64,000 nt of DNA from NCBI GenBank assembly GCA_963770895.1, contig CAVYRF010000001.1:1280001-1344000 (forward strand). Direction: 5' to 3'. How positions within the stretch are numbered: the stretch's first letter is position 1; every line of letters begins with the position of its first letter. Below, piece by piece: positions 5,369-21,664 of this stretch. The position numbers and the translations under genes are program-made. The DNA is from an uncultured Acidobacteriota bacterium. GTDB lineage: Bacteria > Acidobacteriota > Thermoanaerobaculia > Multivoradales > UBA5704. Under the pieces are notes generated by a model. The model was not told the origin of the DNA. It did not search any database and saw only the letters and a program-made list of their open reading frames with translations.

Positions 5369-5519
5369 CGCCCCCCTCCTTGAGCCGGCCGTGATGAGCA
5401 ACTCTACGGCCGCCGGTGGAGCGGGGTTTCAGGCGCCTCCGGGTGGTCGTTCCCTCGCCTTTCGGCGGGCTGGCCGGGAGGCCCCGGCGGCGGCGCTCGG
5501 GGGCGCCGCGGGCTGGGCG

Positions 5520-6803
5520 CTACAGCGCGCGCGGGCGGCTGGCGGCGCGGTTTTGGGCGACGCGCAGCTCCTGGCCTTCGACCAGGGAATCGGGGGGATT
5601 GTCGACCACCTGCTGGCCGGGGGTGAGGCCGGCGACGACTTCGACCTGGGTGCCGTAGTCGCGGCCGACGGTGATCGGCGTCATGTGGGCGCGACTGTCG
5701 GCGCCCAGGGTGGCGACGCGCAGCCCCTCGGATTGGAAAATGAGCGCGCTGACCGGCACCAGCAGGGTGGGGAAGTCGCGCGGCAGCGAGAGATGGACCT
5801 GGGTGTAGGCGCCGGGCAGCAGCTCGCCCGTGGTGTTGTTGACGTCCACTTCCGCCAGCAGGGTGCGGCTGGCGGCCGAGATCGAGTTGGAGTTGCGCAC
5901 CAGCTTGCCGTCGAAGTGCTTGCCGGGAATCTCGGCCAGCGTCAGGTAGGCGGTCATGCCGGGCAGCGCCGAGCGCGAATCGATCTGCGGCACGTTGACG
6001 TAGACGCGCAGCGTGTTGATGGCGGCCATGTGGAATAGCTCGTGCGCCGTGCCGGTGGCGCTGCCCGAATCGATCAGCTGGCCGACGTCGGTGTCGCGCG
6101 CGGTGATCACGCCGTCGAATGGCGCATAGATTTTTTCGAAGGACTGGAGCTGTGCGAGGCGCCGCACGTTGGCTTGCGACGAGTTGACCATGGTGGCCTT
6201 GGCCTTGGCGTCGGCGACCGCGTTGTCGGTATCCTGCTGCGACACCGAATTGGTCTTGATCAGCTCCAGGTACCGCTTGGCGGTGATCTGCGACAGCTCC
6301 AGGTTGGCCTGGGCGGTCGCCAGGTCGGCGCGCGCCTGGTCGAGCTGCTGGTCGGCTTCGGGCGTCTCGATCTCGGCCAGCAGCTGCCCCTTCTTGACCC
6401 GCGCGCCAATGTCGGCATACCACTTCTTGAGGTAGCCGTTGGTGCGCGCGTAGATCGGCGCGTCGCTGAACGCCTGGATGTTGCCGGGCAGGACGATCTC
6501 CTGCTGCGGCGCGCCCAGCTTGGGCACCATCACCGTCACGGTGGCGATCGCCTTTTCGCGCGTCTGCTGCGCCAGCTCGTGATCCGCGTGCATGCGCGGC
6601 ACGATGCCGGCGACCGCCAGCGAGATGACCAGCACGCCGCCGATCGACAACAGCAGCACGCTGCGCGTGCGCGAGCGGCCGGCGGGGGCCGCGGCGGCGT
6701 CCGGCGGCGGCGCCGGGATCGCGGCCGGATGGCTGGAGTCGACCGCCGGGTTTTGCCGGCCGTCGTGAGAATTCAGATGGCGATCGCCATCGTCAGGATT
6801 CAT
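5520..6803 (-). CDS. RND efflux membrane fusion (periplasmic adaptor) protein
   Basis: TM anchor, APIYARTNGYL..DIGARVKKGQLLAEI lipoyl motif, APFDGVIT; start overlaps the RND stop (ATGA). Confidence 0.93.
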   Translation of the reverse strand: MNPDDGDRHLNSHDGRQNPAVDSSHPAAIPAPPPDAAAAPAGRSRTRSVLLLSIGGVLVISLAVAGIVPRMHADHELAQQTREKAIATVTVMVPKLGAPQQEIVLPGNIQAFSDAPIYARTNGYLKKWYADIGARVKKGQLLAEIETPEADQQLDQARADLATAQANLELSQITAKRYLELIKTNSVSQQDTDNAVADAKAKATMVNSSQANVRRLAQLQSFEKIYAPFDGVITARDTDVGQLIDSGSATGTAHELFHMAAINTLRVYVNVPQIDSRSALPGMTAYLTLAEIPGKHFDGKLVRNSNSISAASRTLLAEVDVNNTTGELLPGAYTQVHLSLPRDFPTLLVPVSALIFQSEGLRVATLGADSRAHMTPITVGRDYGTQVEVVAGLTPGQQVVDNPPDSLVEGQELRVAQNRAASRPRAL

Positions 6804-9800
6804 CGAGCTTTCTCCTCGCGATGCATGAGACTGAAGAACGCTGGAACGAAGGTCAAGGTTGCAACGGTCGCCAGCAGCAGGCCGCCGATCACCGCGCGTC
6901 CCAGCGGCGCGTTCTGTTCGCCGCCGTCGCCCAGCCCCAGGGCCATCGGCACCATGCCGATGATCATCGCCAGGGCGGTCATCAGGACGGGGCGGAAGCG
7001 GGTGAAGCCGGCCGACAGCGCCGCCTGGGCGGCGGTCATGCCGGCGTCCATCTGTTCCTTGGCGAAGCTGACCACCAGGATGCTGTTGGCGGTGGCGACT
7101 CCCATGCACATGATCGAACCGGTCAGGGCCGGCACGCTGATCCGCGTCCAGGTCAGGAACAGGAACCAGACGATGCCGCAAAGGGCCGCCGGCAGCGCCG
7201 CGATGATGATGAACGGATCGAGCCAGGACTGGAAGTTGATGACGATCAGCAGGTACACCAGCACGATCGACAGCAGCAGGCCGCCGAGCAGCCCGATGTA
7301 GGACAGGCGCATGGTCTGGATCTGGCCGCGCACGATGATCTGCGAGCCGCGCGGCAGGCTCTTCTTGCCGGCGGCGACGATCCTGTCGATCTGCCTGGCG
7401 ACGGTGGCGAGCGCCGTGCCCTCGACCGCGCCGTAGATGTCGATCACCGGCTGGACGTCGTAGTGGCTGACCGTGCCCGGCTCGGCGCCGCGCACGACCG
7501 ACGCGACGTTGCCGAGAATCTGCGGCGCCGCGCCGGTGCTACCGGTGATCGGTATGTTTTCAAGATCCTGCACGCTGGTCAGCCGGTATTGCGGCGATTG
7601 CACGGTCAGGTTGTAGGTCACGGCCTGCGGGCTCAGCCAGTAGGTGGGCTGGGTCTGGCCGCTGCCCGAGAGCGCCACCAGGAGGTTGCCCGCCACGTCG
7701 TGCTGGGTATAGCCGACCTGCTGCGCCAGGGTGCGGTCCACGTTGACGGTCAGCTTGGGCTGATCGAACGGCTGGTGGATGCGCAGATCGGTGGTGCCGG
7801 GGATCTCTCGCACCTGGGCCAGCATTTTTTCGGCGAAGGCGCGATTGCCTGTCAGGTTGTTGCCGACGATCTGGATGTCGATCGGCGCCGGCAGGCCGAA
7901 GTTGAGGATCTGGCTGACGATGTCGGTCGGCAGGTAGTAGAAGGTGGTGCCGGGAAACTCTTGCAACAGGCGGGTGCGCACCTGGCGCATGTACCCGCCG
8001 GTGGGATGGTGGTCGGGCGTCAGCGTCACCAGGATGTCGGCGTCGCCGGGGCCGATCGGCGCCGAGTTGCTGTAGGAAAGGTTGAGGCCGCTGTAGGGCA
8101 CGCCGATGTTGTCCAGCACGGCCACGATTTCATTGGGCGGCACGACCGAGCGGATGGTCTTGCCGATCTCGGCGCAGAGGCGTGCGGTCTCTTCGATGCG
8201 CGTGCCGGTGCGCGCCCGCACGTGCAGCTTGAACTGCCCGCCGTCGACCGAGGGAAAGAAGTCTTCCCCCAGCCACGGATAGAGCACCGCGGCGGACAGC
8301 GCGCAGAACCCCAGGAACACCAGGATGAACACGCCGCGATGGGCGATGACGCCTTCCAGCATGCGGTGATAGCCCTCGCGCAGGCGCTCGAAGCGCCGCT
8401 CGAAGGCGAGCTGCAGGCGGATGAACGGATTGCGGCTCTGCGCCGCAGCCGCGGCGGCGGTGTGCGAATGCTCCTTGAGCAGGTACTTGGCCATCGTCGG
8501 CACCAGCGTGCGCGACAGGAAATACGACGCCAGCATGGCAAAGACCACGGCTTCGGCGAGCGGCACGAACAGGTAGCGCGCCACGCCCGACAGAAAGAAC
8601 ATCGGCACGAAGACGATGCAGATGGCAAGCGTCGACACGAACGCCGGCACCGCGATCTGCGACGCGCCGTCCAGGATGGCGCGCTCGATCTCCTTGCCCT
8701 GTTCGAGGTTGCGGTTGATGTTTTCGATCTCCACCGTGGCGTCGTCGACCAGGATGCCGACCGCCAGCGCCAGCCCGCCCAGGGTCATGATGTTGATCGT
8801 TTCGCCCAGCGCGCTCATGGTGATGAGCGACACCAGGATCGACAGCGGGATCGACACCGCGATGATCACGGTGCTGCGCCAGCTGCCCAGGAACAGCAGG
8901 ATCATGGCGGCCGTCAGGCAGGCGGCGATGACCGCTTCGCGCACCACGCCGTCGATGGCGCTGCGCACGAACACCGACTGGTCGGCCAGCGGCGTGATGT
9001 TGAGGTTCGACGGCAGGGTGGTGGCGATGGCCGGCAGGCGCTCGCGCACCCGCTTGATGATGTCGAGCGTGGACGCGGCGCCGGTCTTGAGGATGGTCAG
9101 CACCGAGGCGCGCTGGCCGTTGACCAGCACGATGTTGGTCTGCGGCGGAAAGCCGTCGCGCACGTGCGCCACGTCGTGGACGTAGATGGTGGCGTTGCCG
9201 ACGGTCTTGATCGGCAGGTCGTTGAGCTCCTGGATGGTGACCGGGCTGCTGTTGGTTTCGATTTGATATTCGAAAGTGCCGATCTTGGCGGTGCCGGCGG
9301 GCAGGATGATGTTCTGCAGGCTGAAGGCGTTGACCACGTCGTTGGGAGACAGGCCCTTGGCCTGCAGCGCGGCGCTGTCCAGGTCCACCTGGATCTGGCG
9401 CGTCTTGCCGCCGTAGGGGAACGGGATGGCGGCGCCCTGCACCGTTGCCAGCTGGGTGCGGATGAAGTTCACGCCGTAGTCGCTCAGCTGCTGCTCGGAC
9501 AGCCCCTGCCCCGACAGCGCCAGCTGCAGCACCGGCACGGTCGAGGCGTTGTAGGTGATGACCAGCGGCGGCGTCGTGCCCGGCGGCGCCGAGCGCAGCT
9601 GGGTCTGCGCGATCGCGGTCACCTGCGCGATCGCCGACGCGATGCTGACGTTGGGCTGAAAGAAAATCTTCACCACCGAGATGCCGGAGAGCGTTTGCGA
9701 TTCGATGTGCTCGATGTCGTTGACCGTGGTGGTCAGACCGCGTTCGAAGTTGGTGACGATGCGGTTGGTCAGCTGTTCCGGCGACAGCCCGGCATAGTTC

Positions 9801-10107: not shown

Positions 10108-11025
10108 TTATAAAGCCGGGTGGATGTTCGCGATGTCCGCCGCCGGCGCGGCCTCCGCGGCCCCCGATCGGCTGCCTTCGGCGGCGGCGAACGTGGCCAG
10201 CGCGAGCGCCAGAATCCGCGCCCCCGCCAGCCGATACGCGCCCAGGTGATAAGCCGCCGGCACCACCAGGCAGCGGCCGCCGGCACGCCGTGCCAGGTCC
10301 GCGGTATCGGCGGCAAGCACGCCGGGGTCCTGCTCGCCGCTGACGTAGGCGACGGCGGCGGCGCCCAGGTGCGCGGCGTGGCGGCGCAGATCGAGAAAGC
10401 GATAGGCGCGCGGCAGCACGTGGCGTAGCGTCAGGTAGCCGGGGCGGCCGCGCGGCTCGGCCTTCCACGACCATTCGACCAGGTGCGGCGGCACGTCTTC
10501 GAAGACGGCGCCGGCGGCGAGGCGCATGCGGCTGAGCGCGAGCTGCACCCAGTAGCCGCCGCTGCTCACCCCCCACACGTGCAGCGGCAGCGCCGCGTCC
10601 AGGCGCTGGCGCAGGGCGCGCAGGCCCGCCGCCGCATCGCGATCGAGAAACCCCGCCGGCGGCGGCCCGCCGGGCAGGCCGGAAAAGTCGAGCGTCAGCA
10701 CGTGATAGCCGGCGGCGCGCAGGCTAGGCAGCCGCGACCCGCGGTGAAAGTACGCCTGGCCGACGCGCACCCACGGCGGCAGCAGCAGCACACCGCCGCG
10801 CGCCGGCGCGGTAGCCGGGTACCACGTGCCGGTCAGGATGCCGCCGCCCTCGTCGCGCGGCACCGGGACGTATTCCCAGGGTGCCAGCTCGGGCGCCGGC
10901 GGCAGGCCGGGCACGCGCTCAAGGCGCGGCGACAGAAACCGGAAGAGCCGGCTGGAGCAACGTTCCTCCCAGGCCGCGGGGCGGGGCGGTGCCCCCGAGC
11001 CACCGGCGGCGGATCCGAATCCCAT
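10108..11025 (-). CDS. Alpha/beta hydrolase fold protein
   Basis: GYHVLTLDF, nucleophile elbow WGVSSGG, GEQD and AYHL; start (MGFGS) inferred. Confidence 0.75.
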   Translation of the reverse strand: MGFGSAAGGSGAPPRPAAWEERCSSRLFRFLSPRLERVPGLPPAPELAPWEYVPVPRDEGGGILTGTWYPATAPARGGVLLLPPWVRVGQAYFHRGSRLPSLRAAGYHVLTLDFSGLPGGPPPAGFLDRDAAAGLRALRQRLDAALPLHVWGVSSGGYWVQLALSRMRLAAGAVFEDVPPHLVEWSWKAEPRGRPGYLTLRHVLPRAYRFLDLRRHAAHLGAAAVAYVSGEQDPGVLAADTADLARRAGGRCLVVPAAYHLGAYRLAGARILALALATFAAAEGSRSGAAEAAPAADIANIHPAL

Positions 11026-11072
11026 GGCGGTCGAGAGCGGGCGAGGCGAGACCGGTGGCGTACGGCGTACCG

Positions 11073-11624
11073 CTAGGCTGACGGCAGCGATGCCGCCACC
11101 AGCTCGCGCAGCAGCCGCTGGCCCTCGTGCCATTCGCCCAGGCCGGTGGCGGCGTTGATGTGGCCGGCGGCGCCGATCGCGGCGAAGCGGCTGCCCCAGG
11201 CGTCGGCGAACAGGCGGGCGCGGTCCGGGCTGACGAACGGGTCGTCGTCGCTCGCCACCACCAGGCTGGGAATCCGCAGCCGTTCGAGCGGCATCGGCTG
11301 GAAGCCGGTCGTGCCGGGCGGGAAGGATGGGGCGTCGACGTCGCTCGGCGCCACCAGGAAGGCGCAGCGCGCCGGCCGGTTGCTGCGGCGGCTCCAGTGC
11401 GCCACCGTGACGCAGCCCAGGCTGTGGGCGACCAGCACCGCGCCGTCGCCGACCTCCGCCACCGCCGCGTCGAGCGTCGCCACCCAATCGTCGCAGCGCG
11501 GGGAGCTCCAATCGGCCTGGACCAGCCGCCGGCAGTGCGGATCGAGGCCCTCCCACACGCTTTGCCAGTGGGTAGGGCCGGAGTCGTAGAGACCCGGAAT
11601 GAGTACGAGGGTGCAGGGCTGCAC
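11073..11624 (-). CDS. RBBP9/YdeN-family serine hydrolase
   Basis: IPGL..SG..HWQ, VAHSLGC, ASDDDPF, AGHIN..GLGEW; GGAGG RBS before GTG 11624. Confidence 0.92.
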   Translation of the reverse strand: MQPCTLVLIPGLYDSGPTHWQSVWEGLDPHCRRLVQADWSSPRCDDWVATLDAAVAEVGDGAVLVAHSLGCVTVAHWSRRSNRPARCAFLVAPSDVDAPSFPPGTTGFQPMPLERLRIPSLVVASDDDPFVSPDRARLFADAWGSRFAAIGAAGHINAATGLGEWHEGQRLLRELVAASLPSA

Positions 11625-11744
11625 GGTGGCCGCGTCCTCCCGAGGACGGTACCTATTGTTGCACGCCGCGTGCCGCGGCGCGACAGCCCGCCGCGCCCAT
11701 GGCACGACGCGGCGCAAGCGATGTCGCAATCGCGCCTTCACGGG

Positions 11745-11750
11745 TATAAT
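11745..11750 (+). promoter_or_regulatory. Candidate sigma70 -10 element for the CHAT gene
   Basis: Perfect TATAAT in a very GC-rich intergenic region; no clear -35. Confidence 0.4.
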
Positions 11751-11809
11751 CCGCCCTTCGATCGACTGTGGGTGTTGGCGTTGGGGGCTGTCCCGCGGCC
11801 TGGCTGCAG

Positions 11810-14800
11810 ATGCGTGGCCGCCGCGCCGAGGAGGAGGAATTGCTGCGGGAGCGCGCGCCAGGCATGGCGGCGGCCGTCTGCTGCCTTGTCGTGGCCCTTG
11901 CCCTTGCCGGCGCGGCGGCCGGGCGCGCGGCGTGCGGGCCGCGCGAGGAGCCGCCCAAGCCACCTGCGCCGGCGCCAGGCAGGGCGCTGCCGCGCGGCGA
12001 CGGCGCCCTGCACGGCCTGGCCGCCGGCGGCGACGACGTCTACGACGTCGACGTGCCGGCCGGCCAGGTGCTGTACGCCACCTTCAGACAGCTCGGCATC
12101 GACCTGTACGTCGACGTCTACGCTCCCGACGGGAAGCTGCTGTACACCGCCGACAACCTGCGCGGCGCCAAGGGCCTGGAGGAGGTGGTCGTGGTCGCCC
12201 CGCGGGCAGGCCGCTATCGCCTGGAGGTCAGGGCCTGCCTGGGGGTGCCCGGCGGACGGTACGTGGCGCGCCTTGCCGACCTGCGCCCGGCCAGCGCCGC
12301 CGACCGCCTGCGGGCCGCCGCCGAAAGCCTGATCGCGCAGGCGGTCGATTGGCCGCTCGCCCCGCGGACGCCGGCCAGGGACGCGGGCGCCGCCCTGCTG
12401 CGTGCCTGTGCGCTTTTCCATCAGGTCGGGGCGCGGCGCCGCGAGGCCGAAGGCTGGTACCGCCTGGGCAGGAAGCAGTTCGGCGCCCATGCCTATGCAG
12501 ACGCAATCGCGTCGTTCAACCAGGCAAATCCTCTCTACCGGGCGGTGGGCGACCGCGCCTTCGTCGCCAGCTCCTACAGCTGGATCGGCAGCTGCCACTA
12601 CGCGCTGGAGCAGCGGGAGCTGGCGCGCCGGTTCTACGCGTTGTCACTGGCGGAGTGGGCGACGCAGCCGCCCGGCGAAGGGCGCGCCAGGACGCTGGTC
12701 AGCCTGGGCAAGGTGCACGTCGACGCCGGCGAATGGACCGCGGCGCTGCGCTGCTACGCCGAGGCGATCGCCCTGCTGAGCCAGGTCGCGTCGCCCGACC
12801 GCGCCGAGGAGGCGCGGGCGAACACCCAGGTCAGCGCGATCTACCGCGCCCTCGGAGATTGGGACGATGCCCTGGCGGCGGCGCGTCGCGCCAGCACGTT
12901 GTGCGCCGCCGCTCCCTCCTGCCAGCAGGCCGCGGTGTGGAACGAGACGGCGCGGATCTACATCGACCTGGGCCAGCCCGGCGTCGCCGTCCCCTATTGC
13001 CTGCGCGCCCTGGAAACCGGGGACCCGGAGGAGCAGGCGGGCGCCCACACCGACCTGGGCGTCTGCTACCGCCGCCTGGGTTTCAGCGATCGCGCACTGG
13101 GGCAATACCTCACCGCGATCCAGATCTATCGACGGCTCCGCAAGAGACGCCTGGAAGCCATCGCCTGGCTCGATCTGGCGAGCCTTTTCCGCCGCACCGG
13201 ACAGCCGCGCAAAGCTGCCCACTGTTTCGCCAAGGCGCAGCAGCTGGCGCACGACACCACCAGCCGTCGCACCGAGGGGTTGGCCATGCTCGGCGCCGGT
13301 CTCGCCGCCCGCGACCTGGGCAACCTGCAGGAAGCCCTGGCCCACGGCAAGGAGGCGCTGCCCAACGTCGAGGCGCTGCGCGGCGGCGTGCAGCGGTCCG
13401 ACCTGCGCGATACCTTCCAGGCGCGCAGCGGCGACGCCTATGACTTTCTGATCGGCGTGCTCATGCAGCTGCACCTGACGGATCCCGGCCGCCGTTACGA
13501 CGTGCAGGCGCTGCAATATTGTGAGCAGTCGCGCAGCCGCACCCTGCTCGACCTGCTGTCCGTGCGGCAGGCGCCGGCCGCGGCGACGGCCCCCGATGCG
13601 GCGACGCTGGCGGCGTTCCAGAGCGTGGCGGCGGCGATCGCGGACAGCGACCGCGAGCTGCAGACGCCGGCGGCGTCGCCGGCGCGCCGCCGCTTCCTCA
13701 AGGAGCGGCTCGACGACCTGCTGGGAGAGGCCGCGGTCCTGGCGTTGCGTCTGCACGGCGCCACGGCTTCGCTGCCGTCGACGCCACCCTCCCCGCGATC
13801 GATCACCGATCTGCAGCACGGCCTGATCGATGCCGGCACCTTGCTGCTCGAATATCACGTGGGCGCGACGAAAAGCTTTCTGTGGGTGGTGAGCGATCGT
13901 GCGGTCAGCAGTTTCGAGCTGCCGGGACGCGACCGATTGGAGCCGCTGGCGCGCGCCGCGTACGGCCAGCTGGCGGGGGCGCGGCCGGCGACCGACATGG
14001 AGCGCGGCGAAGACCCGGTGGCACGTCTCAGCCAGATCCTGTTGGGGCAGGTCGCCGGCCGTCTGGGCAGCCAGCGCCTGGTCGTGGTCGCCGACGGCGT
14101 GCTGCAGTACATCCCTTTCGCGGCGCTGCCGGACCCCGACCCCCGCGGCGGCGGGCAGCTGCTGGTGGTCGAGCACGAGATCGATTACGCACCGTCGCTG
14201 GCGGTCGTGGCCGCGCTGCGGCGCGCGCCGCCGCCGCCGCTATCCACGGCTGCGGCCGCGGCCGCAGGGCCCGCCGGCACCGCGGGCTCAACGTCGAAGT
14301 CGATCGCGGTCGTCGCCGACCCGGTCTTCGCACCCGACGATCCGCGGCTGCGCCTCAAGGTGCCGCGCCAGACGCTGGCGGCGCTCGATCCGCGCCTCAC
14401 GATCCTGCAGCGCCTGCCGCGCACCCGTGACGAAGCCGGCGTGATCGCCTCCCTTGCCGGGCCGCGCCAGGTCTTCGCGGCGCTCGATTTCGACGCCAAC
14501 GCCAAGCTGGTGACCGGCGGCGGCCTGGCCGGCTGCCGCATCCTCCATGTCGCGACGCACGGCATCCTCCGTACCGACAAGCCAGGCCTGTCGGCGCTCG
14601 CCTTGTCCCAGCTCGACATGCAGGGACAGCCGCTGGACGGCTTCCTGTATGCCTTTCAGGTCGCCGCCTGCGACCTGCCCGCCGACCTGGTGGTGCTCAG
14701 CGGTTGTAAGACGGCCCTGGGCAAGGAGCTGGGCGGCGAGATGGTCGGCCTGCCGCGCGGTTTCCTCTGCGCCGGCGCCCGGCGGGTGCTGGTCAGCCTG

Positions 14801-14980
14801 TGGGACCTGGGCGACAGCTCCGCCGCCGAGCTGATGGGCGATTTCTATCGCGGCCTGCTCCGCGACCACCTGGCGCCGGGGGCGGCCCTGCACCGGGCGC
14901 AACTGGCGATGTTGCGGCGCGAGCCGTGGCGGCCGCCCTTTCGCTGGGCCTCTTTCCTGCTCGAAGGCGACTGGCGCTGA
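11810..14980 (+). CDS. Exported PPC-like/TPR/CHAT-domain protease
   Basis: Hydrophobic signal ending ..GRAAC, beta domain (DVYDVDVPAGQ..GIDLYVDVYAPDG), several TPRs, CHAT motifs DGVLQYIPFAAL, LHVATHG (His), LVVLSGCKT (Cys), VLVSLW, WASF. Start uncertain (11810, 11843 or 11864). Confidence 0.92.
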   Translation: MRGRRAEEEELLRERAPGMAAAVCCLVVALALAGAAAGRAACGPREEPPKPPAPAPGRALPRGDGALHGLAAGGDDVYDVDVPAGQVLYATFRQLGIDLYVDVYAPDGKLLYTADNLRGAKGLEEVVVVAPRAGRYRLEVRACLGVPGGRYVARLADLRPASAADRLRAAAESLIAQAVDWPLAPRTPARDAGAALLRACALFHQVGARRREAEGWYRLGRKQFGAHAYADAIASFNQANPLYRAVGDRAFVASSYSWIGSCHYALEQRELARRFYALSLAEWATQPPGEGRARTLVSLGKVHVDAGEWTAALRCYAEAIALLSQVASPDRAEEARANTQVSAIYRALGDWDDALAAARRASTLCAAAPSCQQAAVWNETARIYIDLGQPGVAVPYCLRALETGDPEEQAGAHTDLGVCYRRLGFSDRALGQYLTAIQIYRRLRKRRLEAIAWLDLASLFRRTGQPRKAAHCFAKAQQLAHDTTSRRTEGLAMLGAGLAARDLGNLQEALAHGKEALPNVEALRGGVQRSDLRDTFQARSGDAYDFLIGVLMQLHLTDPGRRYDVQALQYCEQSRSRTLLDLLSVRQAPAAATAPDAATLAAFQSVAAAIADSDRELQTPAASPARRRFLKERLDDLLGEAAVLALRLHGATASLPSTPPSPRSITDLQHGLIDAGTLLLEYHVGATKSFLWVVSDRAVSSFELPGRDRLEPLARAAYGQLAGARPATDMERGEDPVARLSQILLGQVAGRLGSQRLVVVADGVLQYIPFAALPDPDPRGGGQLLVVEHEIDYAPSLAVVAALRRAPPPPLSTAAAAAAGPAGTAGSTSKSIAVVADPVFAPDDPRLRLKVPRQTLAALDPRLTILQRLPRTRDEAGVIASLAGPRQVFAALDFDANAKLVTGGGLAGCRILHVATHGILRTDKPGLSALALSQLDMQGQPLDGFLYAFQVAACDLPADLVVLSGCKTALGKELGGEMVGLPRGFLCAGARRVLVSLWDLGDSSAAELMGDFYRGLLRDHLAPGAALHRAQLAMLRREPWRPPFRWASFLLEGDWR

Positions 14981-15052
14981 CCCGGCGCCCGGCCTGACCG
15001 CGCGGCCGCCAGCCTGATCGCGCGGTTGCCCCTCCCTGCCCGCCGGCGCGGC

Positions 15053-15078
15053 TAAACAAACCCCTGGCGCGCGTGTCT
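15053..15078 (+). promoter_or_regulatory. ECF-type promoter TAAAC-N15-GTGTCT upstream of the peptide gene
   Basis: ctaaacaaa...gtgtct; a near-identical motif occurs at 17446-17472. Confidence 0.6.
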
Positions 15079-15186
15079 CAGCCTGGCGTTACCGGCGCAG
15101 GAGACGGCCTGGCAACCGGCGGTTCCGCAGGCAGGCGACGGAACCGATTCCTGCGCATTATCAACCCACTCTGAGAGGAGGGAGTC

Positions 15187-15354
15187 ATGTCCAAGAAGGT
15201 GGAGCAGAAGCCTGAGGCACCGGCGCGCCAGGACGGCGAGGACGTGAACCGCAAGGTCCTGACTGTACCGGCAGGCGTCAGGGGCAGCGACACCGGTCCC
15301 AATGGCTCTCCAGGGACGGATCCCAGCGAAGATCCGCCGTCGCGGGGCATGTGA
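15187..15354 (+). CDS. 55-aa small peptide (below the ORF-track cutoff)
   Basis: GAGAGGAGGGAG RBS; MSKKVEQKPEAPARQDGEDVNRKVLTVPAGVRGSDTGPNGSPGTDPSEDPPSRGM*. Confidence 0.75.
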   Translation: MSKKVEQKPEAPARQDGEDVNRKVLTVPAGVRGSDTGPNGSPGTDPSEDPPSRGM

Positions 15355-15415
15355 GGTCCGCGGCGCACCCACGCGTTGCTGATCGGGCAGGACGACAAGG
15401 CAGGTAACGGCGGCG

Positions 15416-15952
15416 ATGGCGGCGATGGTGGCGAGAGTGACGGCAGCCTTGGTGCGGGGGCGGGGGGAAAGGTTGTCGGAGTGCTCCCATCGCCGCCGCG
15501 CCGCGGTCGCCTGCCTTGTCCGGGCCGTGGTGGTCGCGGTGGCGCTCTTCGCCCTGTCGAGCGGGTCCCTGGGCTGCGGCCGCGCCAGGAGGGGATCGTC
15601 GTTCGACCAGATCCGCAAGCTGGTGGTGGGCACGACCGAGGCCGAGGTGGAGACGCGCCTGGGGGCGCCCAACCAGTGCCGGCCATGGCTGGACGACAGC
15701 CAGGTGTGTGTCTGGCAGGCCTGCACGTTTCTGGATGGCCCGCAATACCCTGCCGCGATGCAGCACCAGGTGGTAAACCTGGCGATCACCTTCAAGCGCC
15801 CACCCGCGACCGCCGCCGGACCGCCGCCGTCGCTCGCGGTGTGGCGGGTGGCCGACCCGTTCGCGGTCAACTATTCGCTGCTGCCGGTCAGCGAATCCGC
15901 CGTCCCCGCCCCCGGCGGCCTGGGCGGCGACTTTGCCGCAGTGCTGCCCTGA
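15416..15952 (+). CDS. Putative lipoprotein with a SmpA/BamE-like start
   Basis: Hydrophobic stretch then SLGC lipobox; FDQIRKLVVGTTEAEVETRLGAP resembles the SmpA/OmlA motif. Start uncertain. Confidence 0.6.
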   Translation: MAAMVARVTAALVRGRGERLSECSHRRRAAVACLVRAVVVAVALFALSSGSLGCGRARRGSSFDQIRKLVVGTTEAEVETRLGAPNQCRPWLDDSQVCVWQACTFLDGPQYPAAMQHQVVNLAITFKRPPATAAGPPPSLAVWRVADPFAVNYSLLPVSESAVPAPGGLGGDFAAVLP

Positions 15953-15974
15953 TCCTTGCGGCCCGCGGCCGCCT

Positions 15975-16790
15975 TCAGGGCTCGACGACTTGCAGCGGAT
16001 ATTCGCCGAGCGGTTCCGCCGCCGGCCCTGGCTCGGGACCGACGACCCGCAGCTGATAGGCACCCGGAGCCAGCTGGCGGCGGTTGAGGACCACCACCGC
16101 GACGCTTGCCTCGACCGCCGCGAAGTTGGCCTCCAGCGGGCGCCACGCGCGGTCGGCGGCCGGGTTGACGCTGTCGGCGCGCACCTGCAGGTGGATGCGG
16201 ACGTCCGGCACCTGTTGCGCCAGGTGCAGGATCAGGGTGGTGGTGACGGCGTCGGCGTGCACGATCGTCGCCGGCGGCGCTTCCGGACCGCGCAGGACCT
16301 GAGGCGGGTCCAGCTGGAGGAGATCTGCCTGCCGCGCGGCGGGTGGGCGGCCGAGCCTTGTCAGCCAGCCGGCCGCCGCCAGGATGGTCATCACGATCAG
16401 CGCCGCAGCCAGGTAGGGCACCAGCCCCAGCCGTGACGGACGCGCGCCGGGGAATCGCGCCACGGCCCGGCGGCCGGCTGGCGGGCCGCCGGCGGCGGGC
16501 GTGGCGGGCGCGGCGGGTACCCCCGGCGTCGCCGGGGCAGCGGGTGCCGCCGCTGCATCCTCCGGCGCCGCCAGAAAGCTGTCCAGGTCGAGCAGCAGGT
16601 GCGCGCAGTGGGGGCAGACCGCAAGATGATCCTGCAGCGCATCGGCGTCGTCGGCGGACAGCTCTCCCGCGTGATAGGCGATCAGCGCTTCGGGTTGCGC
16701 ATGGCGCTCGGCCCCCTGGCGCCGACGCTCTTCGGTCACCAGCCTGGCGAGCGTCGCCCGCACCTCGGAGTCTTTGTCCTGGTCGTTCAT
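15975..16790 (-). CDS. zf-HC2 membrane anti-sigma factor
   Basis: H...LIAYHAGEL...HLAVCPHC (HxxxCxxC), one TM helix, beta-rich C-domain; ATGA-coupled to the sigma gene. Confidence 0.88.
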   Translation of the reverse strand: MNDQDKDSEVRATLARLVTEERRRQGAERHAQPEALIAYHAGELSADDADALQDHLAVCPHCAHLLLDLDSFLAAPEDAAAAPAAPATPGVPAAPATPAAGGPPAGRRAVARFPGARPSRLGLVPYLAAALIVMTILAAAGWLTRLGRPPAARQADLLQLDPPQVLRGPEAPPATIVHADAVTTTLILHLAQQVPDVRIHLQVRADSVNPAADRAWRPLEANFAAVEASVAVVVLNRRQLAPGAYQLRVVGPEPGPAAEPLGEYPLQVVEP

Positions 16791-17440
16791 GCATCACCTT
16801 CCATCTCGCCTGGCCGCTCGCTCAGCGTCATCTTGAGCCGTTTCTGGGCTTGGTGCAGGTGCGCCTTCACCGTTTCGATCGAAATGAGCAATATTTTCGA
16901 TATTTCGCGATACTTGAGATCTTGCAGGCGCAGGGTCACGCAGCGGCGCATCTGCGGCGGCAGCTGGCCCAGGGCGGAGCGCAGGCTTGCGCTCCGCTCC
17001 CGGTCCAGGGCCCCCTCCAGCGGACTGGGATCGGCCGACGCCAGCCAGCCCCGCGCGCCGGCGCGATTGCCGTGCCCGTCGTCGGCCTGGTCGTCGATCG
17101 ATTCCTCGAAGGCGTCACGCTTGGCGGCACCGCGCCGGCGCAGTTCGTTGCGATAGATGTTGATCATCATTTCGAACAGCCAGCTCATGAATCGAGACGG
17201 GTCACGCAGCGTCCCGATATTGGAGAAGACCCGAATGAACGTGTCTTGGGTGAGCTCCGCCGCTTCGTCGGTGGAAAAACCGCGCTTCGTATAGAAGCCG
17301 CGCACGCGGTGGCGGAACATCCGGTCGAGCTCTTCGCAGCCGCCCTGGTAGTCGATTCCCGCCTGGATCTGCTCCACCAGCACGCGCCAACGGTCGGCGG
17401 GCGCCGGCGCGGTCGTGCTCTGGCTGCGGTCCTGGTTCAT
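16787..17440 (-). CDS. ECF RNA polymerase sigma factor
   Basis: Region 2 AAELTQDTFIRV..FMSWLF; region 4 LPPQMRRC..YREIS..ISIETVKAHLHQA. Confidence 0.93.
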   Translation of the reverse strand: MNQDRSQSTTAPAPADRWRVLVEQIQAGIDYQGGCEELDRMFRHRVRGFYTKRGFSTDEAAELTQDTFIRVFSNIGTLRDPSRFMSWLFEMMINIYRNELRRRGAAKRDAFEESIDDQADDGHGNRAGARGWLASADPSPLEGALDRERSASLRSALGQLPPQMRRCVTLRLQDLKYREISKILLISIETVKAHLHQAQKRLKMTLSERPGEMEGDA

Positions 17441-17445
17441 GGCTC

Positions 17446-17472
17446 TAAACAAAAGCCGGCACGCCGGTGTCT
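17446..17472 (+). promoter_or_regulatory. ECF-type promoter TAAAC-N16-GTGTCT upstream of the caspase gene
   Basis: ctaaacaaa...gtgtct in the 68-bp sigma/caspase divergent spacer; matches 15053-15078. Confidence 0.6.
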
Positions 17473-17508
17473 GGCAGGTTTGGCACCGTGGAAAGGAGTG
17501 TAGCGCAA

Positions 17509-18489
17509 ATGCCAGTCCAACCAACTTCAGGCGCCCGCCGCGCCCTGCTCATCGGCATCGATCGCTATGAAAACCTGCCGCCGGACAAACAGTTGACCGG
17601 CTGCGTCAACGACGCCGACGCTCTTGCCGGCCTGCTCACCGAGCGGTTCTGCTTTGCCGCCGGCAACGTCGAGCGCCTGCTCGACCGCGACGCGACGCGC
17701 GCCGGCATCCGCGCAGCGGTCGAGCGCCTGATCGAGCGCACCGCGGCCGGCGACGTGGTGGTGATCCATTACAGCGGCCACGGTTCGCAGAGCGTCGATC
17801 CCACCTCCCCTTCCGGCACGATCGAAACCATCGTGCCGTGCGACAGCGGCCGCAACGGCCACCCCAACCGCGATATTGCCGATCTCGAGGTCCGCCACTG
17901 GCTGCTGCGCCTGTGCGACCGCGGCAGTCATCTCACGCTGATCTTCGACAGCTGCCACTCCGGCCATATCCTGCGCGACGGCTTCGGCGCCCCCGAGCGC
18001 TGGGTGGCGCCGCACAGCCAGCCGGTGCAGCTGCCGCCGGAGGTGGTGGCTGCCCAGGGAGTGCCCGGCGCCAGTCGCGACGGGCGCGGCGGCGGTGACG
18101 GTGCCGGCGGGTTGCGGCTGCCGCTCGCCCAGTGCTACGTGCTGCTGGCGGCCTGCGCCAGCAAGGAGTCGGCTTTCGAAGTGGTCGGCCAGGATGCCGC
18201 CGGCGCGCGGCACGGCGCCTTCAGCTACTTTCTGTGCCAGGAGCTGGCGCAGGCCAGCGCGGTGACCACGTTCCGCGACGTCTTCGAGATCGTCGCGCCG
18301 CGGGTCAGCGCCCTCTACCCCAACCAGCATCCACAGCTGGAAGGGGCGCGCGACCAGCAGGTCTTCGGCCTCGATTCGTTCCCGCCGATGCTCGATGCGG
18401 CTGCTGCCCGGCTGAGCGCCGGCGCCATTCGACAGCCCGTGCGGCAGTCGGATAGCCTGCGGCCATGGCCTCGCGCTACAGCCGGGTGA
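17509..18489 (+). CDS. Caspase-family (peptidase C14) protein
   Basis: ALLIGIDRY, GCVNDA, HYSGHGS (His), DSCHSG (Cys), HGAFSYFL, QHPQLEG; AAAGGAG RBS. Confidence 0.93.
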   Translation: MPVQPTSGARRALLIGIDRYENLPPDKQLTGCVNDADALAGLLTERFCFAAGNVERLLDRDATRAGIRAAVERLIERTAAGDVVVIHYSGHGSQSVDPTSPSGTIETIVPCDSGRNGHPNRDIADLEVRHWLLRLCDRGSHLTLIFDSCHSGHILRDGFGAPERWVAPHSQPVQLPPEVVAAQGVPGASRDGRGGGDGAGGLRLPLAQCYVLLAACASKESAFEVVGQDAAGARHGAFSYFLCQELAQASAVTTFRDVFEIVAPRVSALYPNQHPQLEGARDQQVFGLDSFPPMLDAAAARLSAGAIRQPVRQSDSLRPWPRATAG

Positions 18490-19262
18490 TCGGCATCGTC
18501 GGCGGTCTGGGGCCGCACGCTCACATCGACTTCGAGCGGCGGCTGCTGGCGGCCGTGGCGGCGCCGAGCCGCGACCAGGACTATCCCGACTGGCTGCTTT
18601 CGGCGTGCAGCAGCACGCCGGACCGCACCGAGTCGCTGAGCGGCGGCGGTCCGTCGCCGGTGCCCGGCCTGGTGCAGAGCCTCACCCGGCTGGAGGGGCG
18701 CGCGGACTTCGCGGTGATCGTCTGCATCACGGCGCACGCCTTCCTCGATCAGCTGCGGCCGCGCGTCCAGATCCCCATTCTCGACGTCGTCGCCGCGACC
18801 TTTGCCCGCTGCCGGCCGGGCGACAGGGTGGGGCTGCTGGCGACGACGGGTACGCTCGACAGCGGCCTTTTCCAGCGCACGGCGCGGCGGGTCGAGGCGG
18901 GGCCGGAGGTGGTGTCGTTGCGCGACCTGCCGGCGGGCCGGGAGCTGCAGGAAGAGCTGGTCATGCGGCCGATCTACGGCCCGCTGCAAGGCGATGGTTC
19001 CCGTCTCGGCGGCGGTCTCAAGGTGGGCGGCGACCGCGACCCGCTGACCGGGGTGCCGCACCTGGCGACGCTGACGCGCGCCGCCGCGCTGCTGGCCGGC
19101 GCCGGCGCCGCGGCGGTGATCGCCGGCTGCACGGAGATCTCCCTGGTCTTTGGCGGCTGCGGCGGCACGGTCGCCGGGCTGCCGCTGCTCGACTGCATGG
19201 ACATCGCGGCGGGCGCCGCCCTGGGCATCGCGCGCGGCGACCTGCCGCTGCCGCCCGGCTGA
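18465..19262 (+). CDS. Aspartate/glutamate racemase family protein
   Basis: IGIVGGLGP, DQDY, TPDRT, VCITAH and AGCTEI catalytic Cys pair, GLLATTGT. Confidence 0.9.
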   Translation: MASRYSRVIGIVGGLGPHAHIDFERRLLAAVAAPSRDQDYPDWLLSACSSTPDRTESLSGGGPSPVPGLVQSLTRLEGRADFAVIVCITAHAFLDQLRPRVQIPILDVVAATFARCRPGDRVGLLATTGTLDSGLFQRTARRVEAGPEVVSLRDLPAGRELQEELVMRPIYGPLQGDGSRLGGGLKVGGDRDPLTGVPHLATLTRAAALLAGAGAAAVIAGCTEISLVFGGCGGTVAGLPLLDCMDIAAGAALGIARGDLPLPPG

Positions 19263-19437
19263 GGCCGGCGGCCGTCGCCCCGGCCGGGGGGCGGCTTGCC
19301 GGAGGCTCGGCTCGTGGACACCAGGCCGGCGCCCCCTGACGGCCTGACGGCGCAGATTTATGCACAAGGTACAGAGAGGTATAGAATTAGGTGCACTGGT
19401 TGTGTCCCGCCAGTCCACTCAAAGAGGACCGACGACC

Positions 19438-20772
19438 ATGGCAATCAACAAGATTGCGACGCTGCTGCTGTTGGGTACGCTGACCGCGGCCGGCATCGCG
19501 AAGGCTCAGGATCCACCTCCCTATCCCGGCGGCGACTCCGCCGCGCCGCCGCCGGCGGACCAGGCCAACCCGGCGCCGCCGCCGCCCGACGCGGGGGCGG
19601 CTGCCGACCCGGCCGCTGCCGGCATCGACTATTTCCACGGCCAGCTTTCGCCCTACGGCCAGTGGGTCATCCGGCCCGGCTACGGCGAGGTGTGGGTGCC
19701 CAACGTGACGGTCGGCTGGCGGCCCTACACCACCGGGCATTGGATCTACACCGACCAGGGGTGGGCCTGGGCCGCCGACGAGCCCTGGGGCTGGGCGCCC
19801 TTCCACTATGGGCGCTGGTATTACGACGCGCAGATCGGTTGGGGCTGGGTGCCGGGGTACACCTGGGCGCCGGCGTGGGTGGCCTGGCGCCACGGCGGCG
19901 GCTACCTGGGCTGGGCGGCGCTGCCGCCCTCGGTCGGCTTCAGGGTCGGCGTCGGTCTGGCCTTCGGCTCGGTGACCATCGGCACCGGCTACTACACCTT
20001 CTGCGGCGAGCGGGACATTCTGGCGCCGCACATCGGCGGCTTCATCGTGCCCAGCTCGCGCAACGTCACGTTCATCAACAACACCACCAACATCACCAAC
20101 TACACGGTGGTCAACAACCGCATCGTCAACGTCGGCATCCCCGGCGCGCAGGTGGCGCAGGTGGTCGGCCATCCGGTGCAGCCGGTCGCGGTCGCGTCGC
20201 TGACCTCCGCCGGCGCCGGGGGACGGGGAGCGTTCTACCAGCCGGCGATCATCGCCCGCGCGGCGCGGGCCACGCCCAATGAGTTTGGCCACGCCCTGAC
20301 GGCGCAGGTGGCGGTGCAGCAGCACAGCAGCTCCTGGGCGGCGCTCAAGTCGACCCCGGCCGGCGCCGGCCGCCTGACGGCGCGCAGCGCGACCGCCACG
20401 GCTCCCGGCGGTACGCATCCCGGCGCGACGCATCTCGGCGGCTCTCACCCCGCCGGCAGCACCGGCACCGGCAGCAGCACCGGCAACACCCACCACCGCA
20501 GCACGGGCGCCGGCGCCGGCACCGTCCCGCACAGCATTCCCGGTGCCGGTTCGCCCAACACTTCCAAGTCCACCGGCACGTCGCAGGGCACCAGCTCGAC
20601 CGGTCATGGCTCGACCGCCAGCAGCACCGGTTCGACGGGCGCGACAGGGTCCAACCGCTCGACCAGGGCGGGCACGCCGCCGCCGCAGGGCGCCAAGAGC
20701 TCGCCGCCGCCGCCCGGCAAGGGCCAGTCGTCGGCAAGCGAAAAGGGACACAAGCCGCCGCCCGCGGCCTGA
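19438..20772 (+). CDS. Secreted DUF6600-like Trp/Gly-rich protein with low-complexity tail
   Basis: Signal peptide; LSPYGQW..GWRPY..GHW..EPWGWAPFHYGRW..WAPAWVAW; Ser/Thr/Gly tail. Confidence 0.82.
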   Translation: MAINKIATLLLLGTLTAAGIAKAQDPPPYPGGDSAAPPPADQANPAPPPPDAGAAADPAAAGIDYFHGQLSPYGQWVIRPGYGEVWVPNVTVGWRPYTTGHWIYTDQGWAWAADEPWGWAPFHYGRWYYDAQIGWGWVPGYTWAPAWVAWRHGGGYLGWAALPPSVGFRVGVGLAFGSVTIGTGYYTFCGERDILAPHIGGFIVPSSRNVTFINNTTNITNYTVVNNRIVNVGIPGAQVAQVVGHPVQPVAVASLTSAGAGGRGAFYQPAIIARAARATPNEFGHALTAQVAVQQHSSSWAALKSTPAGAGRLTARSATATAPGGTHPGATHLGGSHPAGSTGTGSSTGNTHHRSTGAGAGTVPHSIPGAGSPNTSKSTGTSQGTSSTGHGSTASSTGSTGATGSNRSTRAGTPPPQGAKSSPPPPGKGQSSASEKGHKPPPAA

Positions 20773-20857
20773 TCGCCCAGGGGTGCGCGCCGACGCGCCG
20801 CTGCCGTTGCCTCCACGCTCCGGCCGCACCCCGTCCTACCTTCTTTTCGTTGGTCTT

Positions 20858-21664
20858 CTAGAACAGGTGCGGGTTCCTGGATCGGTAGCGGCGGCTCCAG
20901 GTGAGCACGGTGCCGTTGCGCAGGATGACGCGGGCGTCGCCGTGAAACCAGGGTTGCAGCTCGCCGATGGCGTCCAGGCGCACCAGCTCCGAACGGTTGA
21001 TGCGCAAAAACTGGCTCGGGTCCAGGCGGGTTTCCATGTCCTGCAGGGTGCCGCGGCGGCGAAACTCGCCGCGCCCGGTGTGGACGCGCAGGTAGTTGCC
21101 CTCGGCGCGCACCAGGTCGATCTCGCCGGGGGCGACCAGGACCTGCCGATCCGGGTCGCGCTCCACCAGGATCTGGCGCGGGTACTCCGTCGCGGGGCGC
21201 ACGGCGGCCAGCAGGTGCTCGATACGCGCCGCCAGGTCGCCACCGCCGGGCTGGGCGCCGGGCGACCCGGCGTCGGAGGCGGGGTCGATGCTGGCGCCGG
21301 CGCCGGCCAGCTGGCGGCGCAGGCGGCCGGCCAGCTGTTCGAATCGCGACGGCGCGAAGGGCTTGAGCAGGTAGTCCAGGGCGTGGACCTCGAAGGCTCG
21401 CAGCGCATGCTGGTCGAAGGCGGTGACGAAGACCACCAGCGGCATCGCCGCGACCCCCACCTCCGCGATCACGCCGAAGCCGTCCAGGCGCGGCATCTGG
21501 ATGTCGAGGAACACCACGTCCGGCTTGACGCCGCGGATGGCCTCGACCGCCTGCACGCCGTCGGCGGCCTCCGCCGCCACTTCGAAGTCGCCCTCGCGGG
21601 CCAGCAGGCGGCGCAGCTTGCGGCGCGCCGGCAGCTCGTCGTCGGCGATCAGCGTCCGGATCAT
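20858..21664 (-). CDS. LytTR-family response regulator
   Basis: IADDE, FLDIQMP, TAFDQHA..DYLLKPF receiver; FLRINRS LytTR domain. Confidence 0.95.
   Translation of the reverse strand: MIRTLIADDELPARRKLRRLLAREGDFEVAAEAADGVQAVEAIRGVKPDVVFLDIQMPRLDGFGVIAEVGVAAMPLVVFVTAFDQHALRAFEVHALDYLLKPFAPSRFEQLAGRLRRQLAGAGASIDPASDAGSPGAQPGGGDLAARIEHLLAAVRPATEYPRQILVERDPDRQVLVAPGEIDLVRAEGNYLRVHTGRGEFRRRGTLQDMETRLDPSQFLRINRSELVRLDAIGELQPWFHGDARVILRNGTVLTWSRRYRSRNPHLF

Follow-up and report, generated by a model that had tools for sequence, protein, structure and literature searches.

Six adjacent genes, in a 64,000-nucleotide (nt) stretch of DNA from an uncultured Acidobacteriota bacterium (GenBank assembly GCA_963770895.1, contig CAVYRF010000001.1, positions 1,280,001 to 1,344,000; hereafter the window), encode an exported CHAT protease, a small peptide, a lipoprotein, an anti-sigma factor, a sigma factor of the extracytoplasmic function (ECF) type and a caspase-like protease. 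The cluster is a real system and belongs to soil acidobacteria, and the data support its six genes as a functional unit whose conservation spans both genera and families. We read it as an envelope-to-cytoplasm signalling cluster, in which a split sensor resembling DdvA of Myxococcus xanthus would govern an output of peptide, lipoprotein and caspase, and we put the probability of this reading at roughly one half.

Because the window has a guanine-plus-cytosine (GC) content of about 71 per cent, raw lists of open reading frames (ORFs) are unreliable; genes were called from third-position and codon-position GC together with a codon model trained on the window's own genome (8.16 Mb in three contigs), and domain names come from Pfam. 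The frames of the locus are all open with high third-position GC, and Pfam and the motif positions confirm the genes, domains and catalytic residues listed in an initial annotation made from the DNA alone (Table 1). The first protein matches the CHAT domain with E=1.7e-53, along with several TPR families, and carries a PPC-like domain just under the Pfam cut-off (E=8.5e-4 in the whole protein and 3.3e-5 as an excised domain). Its dyad motifs are ATHG at residues 915-918 and SGC at 964-966, and both the His and the Cys are invariant across thirteen homologues in an alignment of module CHATs. The N-terminus consists of basic residues followed by a hydrophobic segment, which most sigma-linked CHATs also carry, so the dyad, beta domain and signal-like N-terminus first described for this protein were all recovered. 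Pfam identified no SAVED domain on it.

The sigma factor contains regions 2 and 4 only, matches TIGR02937 (NCBIfam sigma70-ECF) above that model's cut-off (E=1.6e-23), and has SigH, SigE and RpoE as its best solved relatives. Its stop codon overlaps the start of the anti-sigma gene, both on the minus strand. In an alignment of twenty anti-sigma sequences built from fetched loci, the zinc motif HxxxCxxC (H55, C59, C62) is nearly invariant. An AlphaFold2 model of the anti-sigma (mean pLDDT, a predicted local confidence score, of 76.5, and above 90 in the helical N-domain) contains helices, a transmembrane (TM) helix (residues 124-146) and a beta-sandwich (156-269), in line with the membrane anchor and outward C-terminal domain originally proposed. 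Foldseek searches with this outer domain returned generic Ig-like folds only.

The caspase has SGHG at residues 89-92 and DSC at 147-149, with His and Cys invariant in fifteen homologues, and the best solved relatives of its orthologue in a same-genus genome (G003) are plant metacaspases 4 and 9. None of twenty-three caspase homologues has a signal-like N-terminal segment before the first caspase strand (five of the twenty-three frames extend upstream of the likely start), which agrees with the earlier description of an intact dyad and no signal peptide. One candidate Tat-type (twin-arginine) export signal, 'SRRALLIGI', was rejected, as this segment is the first strand of the caspase fold. Given the hydrophobic N-terminal segment of the CHAT protein, the TM anti-sigma and the lack of signals on the caspases, the proposed trans-envelope topology stands as a prediction, with CHAT and lipoprotein outside and sigma and caspase inside. 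Neither CRISPR/Cas nor cyclase genes turned up in the window's called gene set, consistent with the claim that the locus is CRISPR-independent.

Table 1. Features of the six-gene cluster and its neighbours. Positions refer to the window unless a locus is named.
Feature	Position	Strand	Basis or remark
PPC-like + TPR + CHAT protease, 1056 aa (amino acids)	11810-14980	+	Pfam; N-terminal hydrophobic segment; catalytic His917, Cys966
Promoter-like motif TAAACAA-N13-GTGTC	15053-15077	+	110 nt before peptide ATG
Small hydrophilic peptide, 55 aa	15187-15354	+	ORF at same place in 13/13 orthologous loci
BamE-like lipoprotein, lipobox SLGC	start 15416 or 15527, end 15952	+	Alignment of 13 orthologues
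Anti-sigma factor	15975-16790	-	zf-HC2 E=7e-07
ECF sigma factor, 217 aa	16787-17440	-	Sigma70_r2, r4_2, Sigma70_ECF (Pfam)
Second motif copy TAAACAA-N14-GTGTC	17446-17471	+	38 nt before caspase ATG
Metacaspase-like C14 protease, short form, 326 aa	17509-18489	+	Peptidase_C14 E=1.8e-25; His91, Cys149
Asp/Glu-type racemase	18465-19262	+	Asp_Glu_race E=6.8e-25 (Pfam), NCBIfam
DUF6600 protein	19360-20772	+	
DUF6600 gene near module, L002	319-1665	-	
DUF6600 gene near module, L003	1975-3543	+	

We searched for the caspase in sixty relatives and found matches in 39 of 61 genomes, counting the window's own (G000). Scanning 49 caspase-centred loci with profiles built for this analysis placed a CHAT gene within 8 kb of the caspase in thirty-six, a sigma gene in thirty-one and an anti-sigma gene in twenty-six. 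All three lie within 8 kb at 22/49 loci, and at 14/49 they are all upstream on the caspase strand. In other genera, the genes run along a single strand in the order sigma, anti-sigma, CHAT, lipoprotein, caspase at nine distinct loci (L084, L086, L087, L089, L099, L117, L042, L043 and L091, the last at the same place as L038), and L085 and L100 hold partial clusters. The window's genus has a rearranged gene order (L034-L036). Two genomes of this genus, G003 and G001, share the window's arrangement with caspases of 680-713 aa, and the contig of a third (G008, L036) stops past the anti-sigma side, leaving its CHAT and lipoprotein genes out of view. The linkage of caspase and peptide genes to homologous loci elsewhere, for which the initial annotation had suggested a gene-neighbourhood survey, is seen in the twenty-two neighbourhoods with all three genes and in a peptide ORF found between the CHAT and lipoprotein genes at all thirteen distinct orthologous loci.

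The system had been put at seven genes, the racemase included. Six of these are conserved across genera, but the racemase is missing from the same-genus orthologous loci. Synteny between G003 and the window's genome covers the cluster only: both flanks differ, and the match stops inside the caspase gene, at caspase residue 294. The DUF6600 gene was likewise rejected as a member, being non-syntenic in orthologous loci, and since the synteny with G003 is limited to the cluster we treat both genes as bystanders. The racemase gene overlaps the 3' end of the caspase gene by 25 nt and so may be co-transcribed with it.

The DNA before the peptide gene contains a conserved block, T(A/C)AACAA, 13-14 nt, (C/G)GT(G/T)TC, at 13/13 loci by alignment. 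A strict pattern (T[AC]AACAA-N12-15-GT[GT]TC) is present before the peptide at twelve of the thirteen. Across the whole genome there are eight strict matches, against about one expected from base composition; two of the eight are at the window cluster, and another precedes the sigma gene of the closest paralogous module (L005). One hundred shuffles of the window gave zero matches to the tested pattern. The caspase copy lies just past the divergent sigma gene. Strict copies before the caspase were also found in L086 and L089, and a related form is present in the three same-genus loci L034-L036. ECF promoters have an AAC/CGT consensus, and judged by this general consensus the motif looks like an ECF-type promoter. 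Since a common motif precedes both the peptide and the caspase, both look like outputs of the sigma factor, and the suggestion that the ECF sigma switches them on gains support. Upstream of sigma, all seven one-strand loci examined have a TTGACA-type sequence, so the sensors read as constitutive and the peptide, lipoprotein and caspase as sigma-dependent outputs.

Additional motif copies occur after the anti-sigma gene in the same genus (L034:9124-9149 (-) and L035:5189-5214 (+)). In L035 the copy stands ahead of an ORF of 157 aa that has no counterpart in the window, where only 23 bp lie between the ends of the anti-sigma and lipoprotein genes. Further CHAT genes were also seen on the far side of the caspase. 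L038 has a fusion of CHAT and FGE-sulfatase downstream of the caspase (15191-17113 (+)), and L084, L089, L091 and L117 have CHAT-profile matches ~4.5-6 kb downstream, at the same relative place as in L038. A promoter-like motif lies ~650 nt upstream of the match in L084, so this downstream CHAT gene may be a further member of the regulon.

The peptide and lipoprotein are real members of the cluster. The peptides are 49-57 aa long (138-142 aa in G003 and G001), hydrophilic, rich in proline and acidic residues, and without a signal sequence. Each has a GGAGG-type ribosome-binding site ending 5-7 nt before the ATG (AGGAGG in 9/13), and several of the loci come from genomes with only 56-60 per cent GC. 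About nine of the thirteen peptides have, towards the C-terminus, the Arg of a P-P-x-R-G-type motif. The ending P-P-x-R-G-G-D-G/D-D is found in four, and the peptide of the window terminates in PPSRGM. By eye, the peptide end 'PP.RGGDGDD' resembles the caspase's own linker 'PPSPIP..RG.LDGGRD', which joins the two halves of the caspase domain. This likeness hints at an Arg-specific, metacaspase-like enzyme for which the peptide may be a substrate or pseudo-substrate. The lipoprotein has no Pfam match at E<=1. Its lipobox Cys is invariant in the alignment of thirteen loci, and its nearest ESM Atlas cluster has BamE in 26 per cent of members (score 0.93). This is a narrow family, found in 9 of 401 genomes sampled across the class and in 7 of 13 in the window's family.

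The sensor part of the cluster recurs within the same genome. The genome has 34 CHAT matches as against five Peptidase_C14 matches, and nine of the twenty-one ORFs matching the CHAT profile adjoin both an ECF sigma gene and a zinc anti-sigma (ZAS) gene. With 41 Sigma70_r2 and 18 zf-HC2 matches genome-wide, an arithmetic estimate of chance adjacency is ~5 per cent per gene. The core module is an exported PPC-TPR-CHAT protein, an ECF sigma and a zinc anti-sigma with a TM helix and an outer Ig-like domain. All nine anti-sigmas follow one plan, in which a zinc motif and a single TM helix are followed by a linker that varies and by a C-terminal domain of ~100 aa ending in L-x-P-G-x-Y-x-L. Eight of the nine module CHATs have an N-terminal hydrophobic segment, which in five comes right after a run of Arg residues. 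The PPC-like domain tracks module membership, as 7/9 CHATs with the domain are sigma-linked compared with 2/12 without it. A caspase or racemase gene was found in none of the eight paralogous modules (0/8).

Individual modules differ in several details. In the closest paralogue (L005, G000:C1:1106000-1123000), the C-terminus of the anti-sigma (6160-6939 (-)) is of low complexity, as if frameshifted, and the CHAT gene is followed by an ORF of 63 aa (8271-8462 (-)) whose ribosome-binding site is strong. In L004 (G000:C1:1739000-1755000), the PPC-like part is in a separate ORF (5515-6096 (+)) just upstream of the CHAT gene, which may be a frameshift or a split gene. The modules L002, L004 and L006 include another small conserved protein of 113-158 aa, without a signal peptide and with the motifs FIG.W/Y and G.WGAD. 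It adjoins the sigma and anti-sigma genes and replaces the peptide and lipoprotein. DUF6600 genes, of which the genome has seven paralogues, lie within ~2-7 kb of three CHAT/sigma modules (Table 1), the distance being 5-7 kb at the two modules other than the window's. No promoter-like motif was found before these genes, and their proximity could be chance or a loose link.

A gene fusion also connects the two sensor proteins. In one relative (G016), a single 1348 aa ORF has the order ZAS-TM-Ig-PPC-TPR-CHAT, with no signal peptide at the junction; it is matched by a public gene call (protein P0003) and retains the dyad region. From this fusion it can be argued that anti-sigma and CHAT, where they are separate proteins, act together on the outer side of the membrane. 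The fusion is rare: in the 150 best matches (E<=1e-30) out of 8662 representatives, only the query's own record covers the anti-sigma part. Eleven long matches that we checked merely had longer TPR arrays, with one (P0121) joining TPR-CHAT to a C25-like protease end.

DdvA/DdvS of M. xanthus, in which the anti-sigma is fused to a periplasmic TPR-CHAT proposed to be a built-in site-1 protease ahead of RseP (PMC11506125), offers a model for how such a cluster could operate. Gene content, conservation, the one fusion, the common motif and the predicted topology are observed here, and from them we infer every biochemical step of what follows. An envelope cue would activate the exported CHAT. The TM zinc anti-sigma, with its Ig-like domain in the periplasm, would hold the ECF sigma, and CHAT and anti-sigma together would act as a split version of DdvA. 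The anti-sigma would then lose its outer domain, probably through CHAT acting as site-1 protease. A candidate position for the cut is the conserved Arg-Gly at R167; this residue is nearly invariant in the twenty sequences and lies just outside the membrane. An RseP-type site-2 protease (the genome has four Peptidase_M50 matches) and cytoplasmic proteases would next release the sigma. Once free, it would transcribe the peptide and BamE-like lipoprotein, and also the caspase, from the two copies of one motif. The caspase would be the likely effector, and the peptide may serve as its substrate or pseudo-substrate.

A number of observations weigh against this scheme. Even for DdvA, CHAT-dependent autoproteolysis is undemonstrated; mutants of the dyad did not differ from wild type in behaviour, and DdvA was not cleaved in response to phage Mx4 (PMC11506125). 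PDB sequence searches, run with the protein itself, with two profiles and with the G016 fusion, found no similarity to DdvA. The modelled Ig-like domain begins ~10 residues after the TM helix, which puts R167 between its first two strands and not in a long free linker. The one-strand operons showed no copy of the promoter-like motif ahead of their sigma gene, and such an absence is uncommon among ECF sigmas. The output arm, moreover, looks weakened in the window's genome. Its caspase is without the ~400 aa C-terminal region of the same-genus orthologues, its lipoprotein no longer has the conserved motifs GDERWIWWNYT and VHLEITF, and its peptide has no acidic tail; the P-P-x-R-G-type Arg is itself not in all thirteen peptides. 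Finally, a relative (G050) has a 1648 aa ORF comprising a signal peptide, TPR, CHAT and caspase, a hint that the two proteases can share a compartment.

Other explanations were also weighed. One is that CHAT is a periplasmic partner or sensor and not the protease of the anti-sigma: it would bind a ligand or cut other envelope proteins (perhaps the lipoprotein), the anti-sigma would sense this by means of the Ig-like domain, and the sigma would be freed either by a different site-1 protease or by a change of conformation. TPR arrays and PPC-like domains are binding modules, the latter track the sigma-linked modules as described above, the window's anti-sigma has only a short linker in the model, and cleavage by the CHAT of DdvA itself is unproven (PMC11506125). 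However, the His-Cys dyad is invariant in all thirteen aligned module CHATs, which argues for catalysis, and the G016 fusion keeps the dyad region. We regard this explanation as rather doubtful. The weakened outputs could also mean that the cluster is a decaying relic in this genome, with a sensor arm that may work and outputs that are no longer useful. The C-terminal domain of the caspase is gone, with an unrelated racemase in its place; the missing region has no match anywhere in the window's genome, and in the orthologues it gave only a weak, sub-threshold match to DUF4384. The lipoprotein and peptide tail depart from the consensus, and both flanks differ from G003. Against decay, every frame is open with high third-position GC, the catalytic domain of the caspase is intact, and so are the two promoter motifs. 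Moreover, G028 has a short caspase of ~283 aa in an otherwise complete cluster, so the short form need not be dead. On balance we find a relic unlikely.

Alternatively, the essential link could be direct proteolysis of the caspase by CHAT, as when SAVED-CHAT activates PCaspase in Haliangium ochraceum (bioRxiv 10.1101/2023.06.23.546230), with sigma and anti-sigma setting expression only. In Chloroflexota, Cyanobacteria, Calditrichia and Rhodothermales (L088, L090, L095, L133, L136), there are CHAT genes followed by caspase genes with neither sigma nor anti-sigma, and both the G050 ORF and the joining of TPR-CHAT to a C25-like protease in P0121 fit such a cascade. In the cluster, though, CHAT has an export signal and the caspase has none, so the two would be expected in different compartments, and the paired CHATs of L088, L090 and L133 are without a hydrophobic N-terminus, which indicates a different, cytoplasmic arrangement. 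A direct cascade in the window appears improbable. A more ambitious form of the split-sensor reading would connect the two arrangements. Here, periplasmic CHAT would read an envelope or phage cue and clip the Ig-domain anti-sigma, and the freed ECF sigma would induce a cytoplasmic metacaspase executioner, a pseudo-substrate peptide and a feedback lipoprotein. Acidobacteria would have rewired the direct cytoplasmic CHAT-to-caspase cascade of other phyla across the membrane by way of transcription, and then multiplied the sensor module to about nine parallel envelope sensors per genome. We offer this extended account only tentatively, as one that may well be wrong.

Among known systems, the initial annotation cited Csx29/Csx30 of type III-E CRISPR; the closest precedent is instead DdvA/DdvS, with its fused anti-sigma and periplasmic TPR-CHAT, which that annotation did not name. 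Both it and the window cluster have an ECF sigma held by a TM zinc (HxxxCxxC) anti-sigma, with the cognate sigma gene adjacent, and a TPR-CHAT with a His-Cys dyad (PMC11506125); the G016 fusion has the DdvA architecture. Unlike DdvA, the window's anti-sigma and TPR-CHAT are separate genes, fused only in G016. The anti-sigma ends in an Ig-like domain, the CHAT protein has a signal peptide at its start, followed by a PPC-like domain, and the module is present nine-fold in one genome. The predicted regulon also differs, consisting of peptide, lipoprotein and caspase and not of CRISPR or cyclic-oligonucleotide-based antiphage signalling (CBASS) genes (PMC11506125).

Three other systems share some of these parts. 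The type III-B SAVED-CHAT/PCaspase/PCc-sigma locus of H. ochraceum similarly encodes CHAT, a C14 caspase and a sigma together, and its caspase is a broad executioner controlled by a small protein, PCi. That cascade is all cytoplasmic, triggered by cA3 (cyclic triadenylate) through SAVED, and works by direct cleavage (bioRxiv 10.1101/2023.06.23.546230), whereas the window system has no SAVED, an exported CHAT and an apparently transcriptional link to the caspase. In the type III-E Craspase, TPR-CHAT (Csx29) likewise controls a sigma by cutting its binding partner (Csx30), but the complex is RNA-guided and cytoplasmic (PMC10028731) and there are no Cas genes among the window's called genes; our CHAT profile matched Craspase CHAT chains marginally (E ~0.006-0.012). 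ECF54 of Actinobacteria has CHAT and TPR proteins conserved beside the ECF sigma, with proteolytic control proposed, together with subtilase and carboxypeptidase-regulatory-like genes and without an anti-sigma (PMC7826278, PMC8999054). The window locus is instead acidobacterial, always has a ZAS anti-sigma, and includes no subtilase. In the portions of the literature that we searched, which did not extend to later ECF groups, we found no split module of ECF sigma, anti-sigma and exported CHAT with caspase, peptide and lipoprotein. The suggestion of an undescribed system is therefore upheld to this extent, although the cluster is a variant of a known, DdvA-like kind.

PADLOC returned a generic caspase model and TPR models only, NCBIfam names for the locus proteins were generic, Rfam gave nothing meaningful over 11000-21000, and a sigma-70 scan gave a single, uninformative site inside the caspase gene. 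Elsewhere in the window, a 1342 aa ORF with good coding signal (24877-28905 (-)) has no Pfam family at E<=1e-5. A nonribosomal peptide synthetase of 3852 aa (33596-45154 (+)) sits in the window's 75-77 per cent GC stretch; its domain matches comprise three for condensation, three for adenylation and four for carrier domains, along with a thioesterase. At 57770-59632 (-) and 60715-61569 (-) lie two AcrB-like pieces that cover profile positions 345-913 and 752-1015, perhaps an efflux pump gene that was disrupted or duplicated in part.

If the proposed mechanism is true, CHAT proteases would stand as a general class of site-1 protease in ECF sigma signalling, a role that to date has been suggested for a single fused protein of myxobacteria but never demonstrated. 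As protease and substrate are separate proteins in this cluster, cleavage is directly testable, and more easily so than with DdvA. The mechanism would also give a bacterial metacaspase a defined trigger at the level of transcription, along with a candidate small-peptide regulator, and would thus bear on how bacterial caspase-like proteases are restrained. Most of the related genomes have 10-32 or more CHAT matches, and these, together with the nine modules here, suggest a large and uncharted family of sensors in soil Acidobacteriota.

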